A DNA stretch of 64,000 nucleotides from Escherichia phage EcF-vB: the sequence record PV683228.1. The stretch is one strand, 5' to 3'. The notes beneath the pieces were generated by a model. The model did not search any database. It saw only the letters and a program-made list of their open reading frames with translations, and was not told the DNA's origin. Below, piece by piece: positions 5,721 through 19,154 of this stretch. Position 1 is the stretch's first letter. Each line of letters starts with the position of its first letter. The position numbers were made by a program, and so were the translations under genes.

Positions 5721-6506
5721 TTAGTTCTTTGCGTCTAAGAAGGTAACTTCTGGTGAAGAGAAAACCGTCTCGATATCCTCATCAGTTCTTGCATAGATAT
5801 AAGCATCTGCATCACTGCCAAATGTTACTGCAATCCTGTGATTGCTCTTCGACAGGTGGGTAACTAGAGCGTTACTTAGAGACATCTTTTCAACCGGAGG
5901 GTTACTTTGATGTATCTTACCTTTTCTTCGTCTGAAGAGGGTAACTGCATTATCTGTGAACGTTACTACACCTGCAAAGTATGCTGGTTCACAGTAGTTC
6001 TTCCAACCTGAGTGTAACTCATTATACATTTTTGCTTCATAGACATACAGATACACATCTACACTCTTCATCACCTGATTAATGATAACTGTGACAGCTT
6101 GAGGGTCAAGTCCACCAATACCTGCACCAATCATAGGTAAACCAACTTTCTTCAACTGGTTAACTTCACAGTATCTGTTAAGCTGTTTCAAAGATGACTC
6201 TAAAGCACTGTATCGGGCATCTTTACCAGTATGAAGTTGGGTGTAAAGATTAGCTACACGACCTTGTTTTAAACGTGCTACGGAGAAATTACCTAGTAAA
6301 TTCTCACAGGGTTTGTGACGAATGCCACCTGCAAACAAGTAAACTTCGGTGTCAGTATCATACACTTTTGGATAACGCTTAGAAATAGTTGCTGCAATAC
6401 CTGCACCCATGAAGTTCATACAGTTGCAACCATGACCAATGATATCAAATTTACCTTTATCAAAGGCGTCAAAGATATCACCTTTGATGATTTTTACAAT
6501 ACCCAT
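5721..6506 (-). CDS. macro-domain protein (ADP-ribose binding/processing fold) with about 100 aa C-terminal extension
   Basis: KGDIF...DIIGHGCNCMNFMGAGIA...GLPMIGAGIGGLD motifs. Confidence 0.6.
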   Translation of the reverse strand: MGIVKIIKGDIFDAFDKGKFDIIGHGCNCMNFMGAGIAATISKRYPKVYDTDTEVYLFAGGIRHKPCENLLGNFSVARLKQGRVANLYTQLHTGKDARYSALESSLKQLNRYCEVNQLKKVGLPMIGAGIGGLDPQAVTVIINQVMKSVDVYLYVYEAKMYNELHSGWKNYCEPAYFAGVVTFTDNAVTLFRRRKGKIHQSNPPVEKMSLSNALVTHLSKSNHRIAVTFGSDADAYIYARTDEDIETVFSSPEVTFLDAKN

Positions 6507-6707
6507 TTAGTATCTCTCCCAAGATTCTTTATCTTCTGAAGGTTTTACACGTTGTCCTTCGTGGTCTACCCAGATACATCCACAACCTTCACAGATTACT
6601 GGCATTGCATAGCCAGCTTTAAAGTCATCTTCAGTGATAAGACCTTTTAAGTCACCTGTATCACGTCCGAACATTTCAATAGAACAGTCTTTACAGAAGT
6701 CAGCCAT
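6507..6707 (-). CDS. hypothetical Cys-rich small protein (66 aa)
   Basis: CKDC ... CEGCGC pattern. Confidence 0.45.
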   Translation of the reverse strand: MADFCKDCSIEMFGRDTGDLKGLITEDDFKAGYAMPVICEGCGCIWVDHEGQRVKPSEDKESWERY

Positions 6708-6719
6708 ATAATATATACC

Positions 6720-6947
6720 TTATAGTTCAGTTTCTCGTAATTCTTCACCTTCATCATAGAAGCATTTATAGAATGTATCTATAGAGATTCTGGCAAAGGT
6801 GAGGTCTTCAAAGTATTCTTCTGGAGTTATCCCTGTAAAACTAAAATCATCAAGGTTGTAAAACGGTATCACTGTGTCATCGCTTATGTAAACACATGCA
6901 GATATGACTTCTCCAGTATCTTTGTCAACTACCTCGAGAGCTTTCAT
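6720..6947 (-). CDS. hypothetical protein (75 aa)
   Basis: ORF in packed operon. Confidence 0.45.
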   Translation of the reverse strand: MKALEVVDKDTGEVISACVYISDDTVIPFYNLDDFSFTGITPEEYFEDLTFARISIDTFYKCFYDEGEELRETEL

Positions 6948-7248
6948 AGTTTACCTTCTCAGTTAACTCATACAAATCAACATGCTCAATACTGTCAATG
7001 TTGATATCAATCTTTTTGAAACGCTCCATCACTTCGTTATCAGTCATCCATATCAGACACCAATGATTCTGAATGGATTCTTCAAGAAGGTCAACACAAT
7101 CTTTAAAAGTTTTTGTATCACTTCTTGTCCCTACTACTGCGATTGTTCCATATAGCCACTTACCATTGCCATAAGATACTTGTGCTACGCCAACTTCTTT
7201 ACCTTTCTCATAGTAAACGGCTACAAAGTCTCTTCCATTAATCTGCAT
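6925..7248 (-). CDS. hypothetical protein (107 aa)
   Basis: ORF in packed operon. Confidence 0.45.
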   Translation of the reverse strand: MQINGRDFVAVYYEKGKEVGVAQVSYGNGKWLYGTIAVVGTRSDTKTFKDCVDLLEESIQNHWCLIWMTDNEVMERFKKIDINIDSIEHVDLYELTEKVNYESSRGS

Positions 7249-7250
7249 AG

Positions 7251-7520
7251 TTACTTCCTCGTTTTAAGAACTGCTAAGATTTCTTTAGAGTCTGGTAAGA
7301 ACCATGTGTAGTGATTTTCTTTGATTTCTGGGTGAGTGTCAACCTTTATTTTGCACTCTTTACCAACATGCTTAAGTTGTGCTGTGACACCTTGCATAAA
7401 GATATGGCACATCACATTATCCATAATGGTTGGTGAGAAATCAATTCGCATATAAGTTTCTTTTGGTCGTGGCAATAGTAAGTAACCTTCTACATAAAAA
7501 GTATCTTCATTCTCTGTCAT
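7251..7520 (-). CDS. hypothetical protein (89 aa)
   Basis: ORF in packed operon. Confidence 0.45.
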   Translation of the reverse strand: MTENEDTFYVEGYLLLPRPKETYMRIDFSPTIMDNVMCHIFMQGVTAQLKHVGKECKIKVDTHPEIKENHYTWFLPDSKEILAVLKTRK

Positions 7521-16393: not shown

Positions 16394-16417
16394 TTAAAAA
16401 GGCTCCCGTAGGAGCCT
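16394..16417 (-). terminator. intrinsic terminator
   Basis: GGCTCC-cgta-GGAGCC hairpin plus U5, 3' of NAMPT. Confidence 0.6.
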
Positions 16418-16431
16418 CTTATCATATACTT

Positions 16432-18212
16432 TTAAAGCTGCTTGTCAATATTATTTCGAATATCACCAAGAGTTGTGTAACCGAACTGCTCAGAGTCACT
16501 AAAGACTAAACGTAAAGCACAAGCTGGGTGGTCAAGTACATCTGCAAAACTCTGGAATCCATAGCCATCTACAGCTTTCAGCTTATCACCATCCCACATA
16601 GGTGCTACACCACCAAAGGCAGATTTCTTAACACCACTATCTGTTTTAGGGTCTTTTGCAAGCATAATCTCTTTACCACCAATGCTTGCAAGAGTTGCTT
16701 TGACAGCAAATGCAAAGGTGTCACGAGTCATGTACTGGTAAGTATAAGAGCCTACACCAAACACTACGTTAGAGCTTGCAAAACCCATTTCATACAGGCG
16801 CTTCAGGATTTCGTTTGCACGTTCCAGCGTGATAGAGTCACCATAGATAAGGCCGATATGCTCATCAAGTACCTTAAACCCTTTAGAGTTAATAGTTCCT
16901 CCAAAGATGTTGTACAGTGTCTTAATAGCTCCATCAATTTCAGCTACAGGACGTGTTACAACGTTTGCAGAACCAACCATATAAGCATTTTTCAACATCA
17001 CTGTATCAGCAACTTCAAAGTCTTCTCTGTCAACAACCATTTCGTAGCCTTCTGACAGTAGCCATCCAGCAATACCATAGCTGATGTTTTCAAGCTTCAT
17101 GTTCAGAACAGCATTCAACATTGTGTCACTAGCTTCCAGCTTGCTTAGGTGCTCGTAATAAGCCTTCTTAGCACACTCTAAGTGGATTGCTTTATAACCT
17201 GTGACAATACGTACAGGGTCTCCAGAGTCAGGGCGAATTACCAGCTTACCATCCCGTTCCATAATTTCTTTACGTAGTGCTGGTAAGATTTCTGACACAG
17301 TTCTCCAGAAGTTATAAGTATCTGAAACAATACTTGCAATACCAGTTGGGTAAGTTTCTGTTAAGAAACGACGGAAGGTTTGTAACTCACCTTTAAAGCG
17401 TCTTTCCTCTTCAATCAATTCATTACCACCTTCCCAAGCAATGTTTGCACACATTACAGAGTGTTCAGTGGCTGGTACAGAACTACCAATATCAGAGATT
17501 GGGTAAGACTGTCCATAGATTCGTTTAGCCGTATACACAGCAGGGAAGCTATCAGTTCCTTTAAAGCTGGTTAAGTGACCTACAGCATTAAATGCGTCAT
17601 CAGTAAAGCCGGACATACCACGCATAGCAAAGTCATGGCACTGATAAGGTAAATGTAAGTCATTGTCGCAAGTAAGGTCAGCCCACTTCTTACAGATACG
17701 TTTGTAGTGCAATGCGATAGTTGCAATGGTGCAAGCCTTCCAAATCTCAGCAGAGAAAGCATCTTCCAGATAACCTGCTACCCAATGGAAACCTGAAACA
17801 GTGTTCTGGAAGACAATCATTGGAACACGCATAGGAACAACTGTACCTTCTTCTACAGCGTATACTTCAACTGGTAGATAGCCTAAATCGTGAAGTGCTT
17901 CCCAATGCTCTCGACCGATAGCATCTTTACCCAGAACACCATTCATGACTTCTAAGATTTCATCAACTGCTTCTTTTTATCACGTTCAAAGAAAGTGGCG
18001 TTCCAGTGGTCTATCAAGTAATCTTTAACAAAACGTTGAATACCAAAAGCCACTACACCGTCAATTGCTAAAGGGCTGTTAAACCATTTGTCGCTACGTG
18101 GTGTCAGGTTGAACATCAAGTAATCTGTTGCACTGGGGTATTGGTAAACATGGCCAGATTTGTAAGCGTCCGCGTTTAAACCTGCTGGCACTGCATAAAG
18201 TGATTTAGTCAT
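16432..18212 (-). CDS. nadV: nicotinamide phosphoribosyltransferase (NAMPT), split into two ORFs (17952..18212 and 16432..17946) by a -1 frame break
   Basis: N-terminal fragment LNADAYKSGHVYQYP and the main ORF each match my recollection of NAMPT; the -1 frame is open across the junction; one extra A in the A5 run (plus-strand T5 at 17974-17978) gives one continuous ORF. Confidence 0.7.
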
Positions 18213-18225
18213 CTTTTAATCTCTC

Positions 18226-18249
18226 TCAAAATGGGGCTTTTAAGCCCCT
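18226..18249 (-). terminator. putative intrinsic terminator
   Basis: GGGGCT-ttta-AGCCCC hairpin plus U run, 3' of prs. Confidence 0.45.
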
Positions 18250-18257
18250 ATAAAGTT

Positions 18258-19154
18258 TCAATCAATGGTCACTACAGTAACTTGGCTATGATGTGTTAAG
18301 CCACGGTCTTTAGCTTCCCCTAAAGAGTTTGTAGTGTAGATATGGTCAATACCATTGTCAAGTAAGTTTTCAACACCTTTAGAGAAAATACCATGAGTTA
18401 CATAGAGTTCCACACGTTTTGCACCTGCTTCACGAAGATGCTTAGCTGCCTCTATGAATGTTCGACCACCATCACAGATATCATCGAGAATCATAACAGT
18501 TTTATCGGTCAAATCAACATCATCAAGTATTCGCACACCAGTAATTTCACCAGTCTTAAGGTTACGCACCTTAGACATTGTGATATATGGCTTATCCACC
18601 TCTTTAGCGGCATCTTCAGTCTTCTTAGCTGCACCTGCATCTGGGGCTACCAAGAAATCAATGCGTGGGTCACTTGCAAAGTGTACTGCTACATCTTTTT
18701 GCTTCATGCTCTGAAAGCACTTAAATAAGTTTTCTGCAACATTGCTGTGAGGGTCAAGAGCACATACTGCATCAAAGCCCATTGCATTAACGAGGTTGGC
18801 AAAAGCTTTCAGTGCTGCTGAATCACCTTTGAACATATGGCGGTCATATCGAGCATTCGGTAAGAACCCGAAAACAACGGTTTTCATCGCTGATTTGTAT
18901 GGAACAAGACTGTCAACGGCATCCTTAGCCAAAGCTAATGCAAACAGTGTATCTTTATCATATCCCTGCACAGTCAATATAACATTGTCAATCTTACCAG
19001 CATTACGCTCAGTAAACTTAACAAAGTCTTCAGAGAAGTTTCCACCAATTTCTCCAGATGGGAATTGGATTATATTAAATTTTTCTGTGTGGAAGAATTT
19101 CTCTTGTGCGGTGACAACGGCTTCAATAATAGTTTTCATAGTTTTCTCTCTCAA
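18258..19154 (-). CDS. prs: ribose-phosphate pyrophosphokinase (PRPP synthetase)
   Basis: PRPP-binding motif VMILDDICDGGRT; size and layout fit Prs. Confidence 0.7.
   Translation of the reverse strand: MREKTMKTIIEAVVTAQEKFFHTEKFNIIQFPSGEIGGNFSEDFVKFTERNAGKIDNVILTVQGYDKDTLFALALAKDAVDSLVPYKSAMKTVVFGFLPNARYDRHMFKGDSAALKAFANLVNAMGFDAVCALDPHSNVAENLFKCFQSMKQKDVAVHFASDPRIDFLVAPDAGAAKKTEDAAKEVDKPYITMSKVRNLKTGEITGVRILDDVDLTDKTVMILDDICDGGRTFIEAAKHLREAGAKRVELYVTHGIFSKGVENLLDNGIDHIYTTNSLGEAKDRGLTHHSQVTVVTID

Follow-up and report, generated by a model that had tools for sequence, protein, structure and literature searches.

A 64,000-nucleotide stretch of Escherichia phage EcF-vB (PV683228.1; the window, by which we mean this stretch at its full length) has a G+C content of ~39%, and its genes across 1-37 kb lie on the minus strand. 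Three of these genes had been singled out in an earlier note made from the letters alone: an adjacent pair labeled NAMPT and phosphoribosyl pyrophosphate (PRPP) synthetase, and a gene for a macro-domain protein. The pair corresponds to genes 79 and 80 of the sister phage JohannRWettstein (Bas63), encoding Adps and Namat, and is therefore already known: the Bas63 operon is the founding example of the NAD+ reconstitution pathway NARP1. By its sequence the window comes from a Felixounavirus, within the FelixO1-like group. The region 16000-19700 is 95-96% identical in nucleotide sequence to Felixounavirus genomes, those of Tribble and Bas63 among them, and most of it is spanned by at least 196 records. 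Look-ups of the exact 504-amino acid ORF, Adps, and macro protein sequences gave no record, and the best nucleotide match is ~96% identical. The earlier note had placed the macro gene exactly (5721-6506, minus strand, 261 amino acids, with a match to Pfam Macro). It had drawn the outer boundaries of the NAMPT gene correctly at 16432-18212, but had missed that the gene reads as two open reading frames (ORFs) in different frames. The ORF called PRPP synthetase, 18258-19154, is real; the start noted for it is a TTG codon, and relatives annotate an ATG five codons downstream, at 19139. The adjacency that the note had remarked upon is not due to chance, for the same order is found in at least 196 related records and also in the unrelated Vibrio phage Thalassa; 859 such pairs have been reported in 20,185 phage genomes (bioRxiv 10.64898/2026.01.28.702374). 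Coordinates of the features are collected in Table 1.

Table 1. Features of the Adps/Namat and macro-protein units, and shortened homopolymers, by position in the window
Feature	Position	Strand	Details
Terminator-like hairpin just past the macro gene	5650..5691	-	19 pairs and a T tail; hairpin scan
C-terminal domain of the macro protein	5721..6032	-	~100 amino acids, mostly beta-strand; without recognizable relatives
Macro domain	6033..6506	-	Residues 1-158 of 261; PHROG 335 family, which also holds T4 Tk.4/AdfM and Thalassavirus Adpp
Hairpin, upstream boundary of the macro unit	8050-8067		Hairpin scan
Terminator-like hairpin, end of the NARP1 unit	16397..16420	-	10 pairs and a T tail, 12 nt past the Namat stop; terminator annotated at the homologous Tribble position
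Namat	16432..18212	-	Predicted nicotinamide ADP-ribose transferase, second step of NARP1; 593 amino acids with the frame restored; orthologue of Bas63 gene 80
Shortened homopolymer splitting Namat	17974..17978	-	One base lost; T5 on the plus strand, sense A5; A6 in the Bas63 alignment
Adps	18258..19139	-	Predicted ADP-ribose pyrophosphokinase, first step of NARP1; 293 amino acids from the ATG; orthologue of Bas63 gene 79
177-amino acid ORF	19155..19688	-	phrog_3500 (E 4e-92), bas63_0077 orthologue; between the hairpin at 19706-19728 and Adps
Terminator-like hairpin closing the preceding unit, upstream of the NARP1 unit	19706..19728	-	Hairpin scan; annotated terminator at the homologous Tribble position
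Shortened A/T 6-runs	2430, 17974, 30088, 30298, 30697, 38395, 46496, 59426, 62343		Comparison with Bas63

The Adps protein shares 280 of its 293 residues with the product of Bas63 gene 79 (95.6% protein identity), is assigned to phrog_619 in a PHROG scan, and matches the Pfam families Pribosyltran (E 1e-12) and Pribosyl_synth (E 3.5e-9). Bona fide PRPP synthetase (PRPS) structures in the Protein Data Bank (PDB) are distant matches, the top score being 67 bits. A solved phage Adps has a PP loop formed by Asp212-Asp213-Ile214-Cys215-Asp216 and a catalytic Lys185 on a beta-hairpin (PMC13586617); in the window protein the DDICD loop is conserved at residues 219-223, and MSK occupies 188-190. Adps would accordingly be described as a remodeled PRPP-synthetase fold, distantly related to true Prs, that probably makes ADP-ribose pyrophosphate (ADPR-PP).

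Namat as sequenced consists of an ORF of 86 amino acids (17952-18212) followed by one of 504 amino acids (16432-17946). With one A restored, 587 of 593 residues are identical to the product of Bas63 gene 80 (99.0% protein identity), and the codon differences between the two genes are 46 synonymous and 6 nonsynonymous. The protein matches Pfam NAPRTase (E 4e-35) and NAMPT_N; its top matches in the PDB are 9w5w and 9w5x (433 bits), with human NAMPT at 140 bits. These two entries are presumably the crystal structures of SpbetaL1 Namat described in PMC12774641. Aligned to 9w5w, the window protein keeps the N-terminal Asp and Tyr and the HDF, MRG, GTD, and RPDSGDP motifs, and the conserved residues, among them the catalytic-core Phe, Arg, Asp, and Arg, correspond to the list in PMC12774641 and to Arg306 of the discovery paper (bioRxiv 10.1101/2024.02.11.579819). 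The signature of the Namat clamp helix, given in PMC12774641 as GSxΦxΦxΦTRD with aromatic x positions, reads GSYTYQYMTRD here, so that both the catalytic residues and the clamp helix of the SpbetaL1 structures are retained. For the clamp loop, the published rule is Arg, Lys, or Tyr at position 3, with a stacking residue at position 4 if Lys or Tyr is used (PMC12774641). The window loop, ...PRSDKWFNSPL... with its register set by eye, appears to have Lys-Trp in place of the Arg of SpbetaL1 Namat, which would be consistent with the variant described there for Bas63. A further difference from 9w5w (496 amino acids) and 9w5x (491 amino acids) is an insertion of ~85 residues (344-427) in the window protein. 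Namat forms a clade distinct from that of Nampt, the enzyme of NARP2.

Adps and Namat are both on the minus strand, separated by a gap of 45 nt, between two terminator-like hairpins, and Tribble shows the same layout around the unit with annotated terminators. The 177-amino acid ORF upstream of Adps is probably cotranscribed with it. In genus, in gene order, and in the flanking genes, with rIIA downstream, the locus agrees with NARP1 of Bas63; it differs in the one-base homopolymer deletion within Namat and in lacking bas63_0078 upstream of Adps. In Bas63 and Tribble that 92-amino acid gene directly precedes Adps; it has been deleted from the window (19151-19180) and from phage HK3, and only its last nine codons (MAVTNVTFD) remain in the window; it is a variable accessory gene within the NARP1 transcription unit. 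In the gap between the Adps stop and the Namat start (18226-18250) there is a GC hairpin, GGGGC-TTAAAA-GCCCC followed by ATTTTG, which fell below the threshold of the terminator scan. It may set the ratio of the two enzymes, either by terminating some transcripts or by stabilizing the RNA.

NARP1 was discovered in the operon of Bas63 genes 79-80 by Osterman et al., whose study began from the annotation-based expectation that Prs and NAMPT lead to nicotinamide mononucleotide (NMN) and refuted it (bioRxiv 10.1101/2024.02.11.579819). In that work, Bas63 without genes 79-80 plated ~20-fold less efficiently on SIR2-HerA cells and did not sustain NAD+; ADPR-PP built up in infected cells, was seen only with the operon and the defense system together, and was abolished by the 79-80 deletion; and wild-type Bas63 overcame SIR2-HerA even in a host lacking pncC and nadR (bioRxiv 10.1101/2024.02.11.579819). 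The purified SpbetaL1 homolog of gene 79 yielded no canonical Prs product and pyrophosphorylated ADP-ribose, and the gene 80 homolog converted ADPR-PP and nicotinamide to NAD+ (bioRxiv 10.1101/2024.02.11.579819). By the same chemistry, which experiments on the Bas63 and SpbetaL1 orthologues established and which we infer for the phage of the window from 96-99% protein identity, a defense effector of the SIR2, TIR, or SEFIR type would cleave NAD+ to ADP-ribose and nicotinamide. Adps would then move the beta-gamma pyrophosphate of ATP onto the 1'' position of ADP-ribose to give ADPR-PP, and Namat, whose NAMPT fold has gained a "selectivity clamp" that binds adenine, would let nicotinamide displace the pyrophosphate and so form NAD+ in one step.

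The suggestion of the earlier note that these genes rebuild NAD+ against depleting defenses is thus upheld by orthology of the pair to Bas63 79-80. Its proposed route through NMN was wrong, having been refuted for the orthologous Bas63 operon, and so was the corollary that an NMN adenylyltransferase (NMNAT) elsewhere in the genome or in the host completes the pathway, Bas63 being independent of pncC and nadR. Because NARP1 makes NAD+ without NMN, no NMNAT is missing. The observation behind that corollary, that no NMNAT is recognizable in the window, holds as far as it was checked. Pfam scans (E≤0.01 or E≤0.001) covered 67 nonstructural ORFs in addition to the macro gene and the NARP1 pair, and neither NMNAT, Nudix, NADAR, ART, and SIR2 nor CTP_transf_like was among the families matched by these ORFs; no NMNAT or Nudix gene appears in the Bas63 genome, which is 95% identical and annotated in full; and among the neighbors within 4.8-21 kb, Pfam and PHROG scans found nothing NAD-related besides the Adps, Namat, and macro genes.

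The break in Namat lies at a homopolymer. Among 99 GenBank relatives matching an 81-nt stretch around the run, 98 have the extra base (A6), and the sole other A5 record is an UNVERIFIED draft with many frameshifts and the gene in many pieces; five IMG/VR sequences match the A6 version and none the A5 version. Over the whole alignment to Bas63, 9 of the 40 shared A/T 6-runs have been reduced to five bases in the window, with no change in the opposite direction. Six of the nine fall in coding sequence and five genes are broken: those for the DNA polymerase and an exonuclease (30642-31577), the orthologues of bas63_0057 and bas63_0010 (62306-62737), and Namat. In the polymerase gene, an A6-to-A5 change (run 38395-38399) leaves two pieces, 37416-38429 and 38462-40144, and three further shortened runs lie inside 720 nt of the exonuclease gene and its neighbor. 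In the Namat frame 3' of the shift, the codon changes relative to Bas63 are 31 synonymous versus 5 nonsynonymous. Because eight other 6-runs are equally shortened, one of them in the DNA polymerase gene, and a viable phage cannot carry a broken polymerase, we attribute the split to under-calling: it is almost certainly a homopolymer sequencing artifact, and the actual phage very likely encodes an intact Namat.

The macro protein matches Pfam Macro (PF01661) over residues 25-141 with 30.2 bits (cut-off 22; E 4.6e-7), belongs to phrog_335, and is 92% identical to bas63_0095, which is annotated as a "putative phosphatase." For the 100 residues of its C-terminal domain, no relative was found in Pfam, the PDB, or BFVD beyond its own orthologues; the domain is confidently modeled and has a conserved basic patch, RRRKGK, with SNPPVE after it. 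The gene closes its own unit, 10 kb and ~20 ORFs from NARP1, and thus does not lie within two genes of the NARP1 operon. That it forms one module with the NARP1 pair is unproven, because it sits in a separate terminator-bounded unit 10 kb away and its characterized homologs point to two roles.

The two roles are those of AdfM (T4 Tk.4 and PhiKZ gp104) and of Adpp. Knockout of tk.4 sensitizes T4 to DarTG2 (bioRxiv 10.1101/2025.11.20.689424), and PhiKZ AdfM strips ADP-ribose from DarT2-modified DNA, an activity that is lowered by mutation of a conserved catalytic-site Asn (PMC13309987). In Vibrio phage Gary, the gene for Adpp sits between those for Adps and Namat, and the enzyme turns ADPR-1''-phosphate, which aRES NAD+ phosphorylases generate, into ADP-ribose, thereby enabling NARP1 (bioRxiv 10.64898/2026.01.28.702374). 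The survey of macro genes associated with NARP1 in that study covered two genes either side of the operon (bioRxiv 10.64898/2026.01.28.702374); a distal copy like the one in the window would for that reason have gone uncounted. A 2022 survey of viral NAD+-ADP-ribose systems treated NadV as NMN-forming and made no specific prediction for this macro clade (PMC9503650). Thalassa belongs to the same genus as Gary, and its gp184 has the same position within the NARP1 operon; gp184 served as the Adpp type in our comparisons. With T4 Tk.4 the window protein shares 35% identity (81.6 bits) and with Thalassa gp184 32% (64.3 bits, E 1e-17), and T4 Tk.4 (L012:3423-3890) and gp184 (L003:4001-4474) are 34% identical to each other (E 6e-20); each of the latter two matches phrog_335-type proteins in ~2,500-3,000 phage records. 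A distance tree of the family is star-like, with the window protein nearer to T4 in 166 of 200 resamples. Because the tree has this shape and the distances to AdfM and to the Adpp type are roughly equal, sequence does not decide the substrate of the macro protein.

The window protein resembles AdfM in having one macro domain, which falls in the DarG/TARG1/Poa1p structural group, and the motifs HGCNC, NLYTQ, and IGAGIG occur both in it and in T4 Tk.4; unlike the window protein, T4 Tk.4 (155 amino acids) has no C-terminal domain. N28 of HGCNC is invariant in 28 homologs, and we assume it to be equivalent to the catalytic-site Asn of PhiKZ AdfM (PMC13309987). Like Gary and Thalassa, in which the association is termed NARP1-AP, the phage of the window has Adps, Namat, and a macro protein of the same family; it differs from them in that the macro gene lies outside the operon, 10 kb away, and in that its product has an additional 100-amino acid C-terminal domain. 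In a phmmer alignment to OARD1, the positions of the TARG1/DarG catalytic Lys and Asp (K84 and D125 in OARD1 numbering) are taken by Q90 and G131. The missing Lys was considered as an argument against a DarG-like role and dropped, T4 AdfM having the same NLYTQ motif. Choosing between AdfM and Adpp by distance or tree was likewise not decisive, and choosing by genomic context fails: in Phapecoctavirus vB_Ec-G1, which carries the closest Adpp-type relative outside Thalassavirus, the gene is not beside NARP1.

Other explanations of the Adps/Namat pair concern its chemistry and its integrity. Classical salvage, in which a Prs-like enzyme supplies PRPP, a NAMPT-like enzyme makes NMN, and an NMNAT of host or phage finishes NAD+, is what the Pfam annotations of both proteins suggest, and a section heading in PMC12774641 indicates that Namat retains some nicotinamide-PRPP catalysis in vitro. 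It would resemble NARP2 of Vibrio phage KVP40 (Nampt and a bifunctional Nmnat), which like the window pair relies on a NAMPT-fold enzyme to rebuild NAD+ against depletion; NARP2, however, uses PRPP via NMN and needs Nmnat, whereas no Nmnat was found in the window and the partner there is Adps. The success of Bas63 without pncC and nadR, the lack of a canonical Prs product, the formation of NAD+ from ADPR-PP, the scans and the Bas63 annotation without NMNAT or Nudix, and the adenine clamp motif specific to Namat all speak against salvage; existing data largely refute it, and we regard it as very improbable. A recent loss-of-function mutation that truly broke Namat and left NARP1 inactive in this phage would agree with the given sequence, in which a one-base deletion is followed by a stop 8 codons later. 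NARP1 is dispensable without NAD+-depleting host defenses (bioRxiv 10.1101/2024.02.11.579819), and its loss would be tolerable under laboratory passage; were the break real, the 504-amino acid part would be inactive alone, because the 86-amino acid fragment carries the nicotinamide-binding Asp and Tyr and the selectivity-clamp loop. The other shortened runs, with none lengthened and the polymerase among the genes hit, the lack of decay in the downstream frame, and the prevalence of A6 among relatives make such a mutation improbable. A programmed -1 ribosomal frameshift on GAT-AAA-AAG could instead fuse the two ORFs: the site is shift-prone and A-AAA-AAG-like, tRNA-Lys could slip from AAG to AAA, and the product would read ...ERDKKEAVDE..., as does the Bas63 protein. 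Yet in relatives A6 keeps the protein in one frame, the heptamer at the P site (T-AAA-AAG) departs from the ideal, and the same one-base loss recurs at eight other runs, several within other genes, so that we give this explanation almost no credence. Both the real pseudogene and the programmed frameshift were set aside on account of the eight other shortened runs and the A6 in 98 of 99 relatives.

For the macro protein the explanations are more evenly matched. Members of the family hydrolyze a substituent at C1'' of ADP-ribose, and a reaction of either the AdfM or the Adpp type frees ADP-ribose, the substrate of Adps. The macro protein could be an orphan antitoxin of the AdfM type that removes DarT2-installed ADP-ribose from thymidines of phage DNA, a function unrelated to NAD+ reconstitution; the greater similarity to T4 Tk.4 is in its favor, but the margin over the Adpp type is small (the 166 of 200 resamples), the DarG/TARG1 catalytic Lys is a Gln, and T4 AdfM lacks the extra domain, and we hold this role to be quite possible while stopping short of calling it probable. 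Alternatively, the macro protein could act in trans as an Adpp-like NARP1-AP phosphatase, converting ADPR-1''-phosphate from aRES-type RES NAD+ phosphorylases to ADP-ribose for Adps and so extending protection to aRES. The presence of Adps, Namat, and a same-family macro protein in one phage would fit such a role, but the gene belongs to another transcription unit, 10 kb off, T4 Tk.4/AdfM is a slightly nearer relative of the protein, members of the family occur widely in phages where NARP1 is not adjacent, and Bas63 is unmentioned in bioRxiv 10.64898/2026.01.28.702374; we consider this rather doubtful. An AdfM-type activity thus seems marginally likelier than an Adpp-type one, the remainder being both or something else. 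One such combination, which we put forward as unlikely yet worth stating, is that the bas63_0095 family supplies the Adpp step in trans as a split NARP1-AP, that it may also reverse DarT2 DNA ADP-ribosylation as a bifunctional PHROG-335 enzyme, and that the C-terminal domain, specific to Ounavirinae and matching no known fold, could add a new targeting or inhibitory function.

Taken together, we think it highly probable that Adps and Namat constitute NARP1, that the Namat frameshift is an artifact, and that the macro protein is a separately transcribed member of the Tk.4/AdfM-Adpp family. Several observations weigh against parts of this account. On the side of the pair, Namat is frameshifted in the sequence as it stands and is not one intact ORF; the Adps residues were equated with those of the solved structure (PMC13586617) by motif only; and the in vitro work used SpbetaL1 homologs, the Bas63 proteins themselves not having been purified (bioRxiv 10.1101/2024.02.11.579819). 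On the side of the macro protein, its gene is separated from NARP1 by 10 kb and a transcription unit, the annotated surroundings of the macro gene in T4 and in Phapecoctavirus include no NARP1 gene, the bit scores place it about equidistant from AdfM (81.6) and the Adpp type (64.3), and the catalytic Lys of TARG1/DarG is Q90, T4 Tk.4 likewise having NLYTQ.

Other features of the window were noted alongside. Between the macro gene and NARP1, at 8554-9249, the bas63_0087 orthologue resembles polynucleotide kinases (phrog_3970, E 5e-128), has no Pfam match, and is a possible RNA-repair counterdefense gene. A 2.1-kb accessory insertion (9865-11904) separates the rIIB orthologue (11954-13060) from the bas63_0086 orthologue; it was seen in only 9 of 214 records of related phages and encodes three proteins (86, 279, and 299 amino acids), the last with an N-terminal part resembling N6-adenine DNA methyltransferases (Pfam N6_Mtase E 2e-5, phrog_799 E 1e-18). 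The anaerobic ribonucleotide reductase gene nrdD (22120-24117; 665 amino acids) is continuous where Bas63 carries a 741-bp insertion (at ~23067), and the window allele is for that reason taken to be intron-less; Bas63 nrdD is annotated as a joined coding sequence with a homing endonuclease inside the insertion. Intergenic cassettes of ~100 bp are repeated between small early genes (2329-2439, 3673-3766, 4378-4473, and 4720-4818), each with several matches in Bas63 (92-99% identity), and probably represent promoter or terminator modules present in multiple copies.

The systematic homopolymer deletions split real genes, and gene calls from this sequence need repair before use. Correct recognition of NARP1 avoids two routine errors, namely the labels "NAMPT" and "Prs" and the hunt for a missing NMNAT. 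NARP1 is a general counterdefense: rather than blocking one sensor, it undoes the harm from many NAD+-depleting systems (SIR2-HerA, type I Thoeris, DSR1, DSR2, and SEFIR). As a pathway it adds nothing new in this window. T4 AdfM and Thalassavirus Adpp have been assigned different activities in separate papers, yet they belong to one family, and judging from their relatedness the anti-DarTG2 and ADPR-1''-phosphate phosphatase activities may be properties of a single enzyme family. Should the bas63_0095 family indeed supply the Adpp step in trans, synteny-based surveys would have missed a split NARP1-AP, and NARP1-AP would be commoner than the published 15%. The Felixounavirus macro protein sits between AdfM and Adpp, and Bas63 is a convenient phage in which to ask whether one macrodomain serves both.

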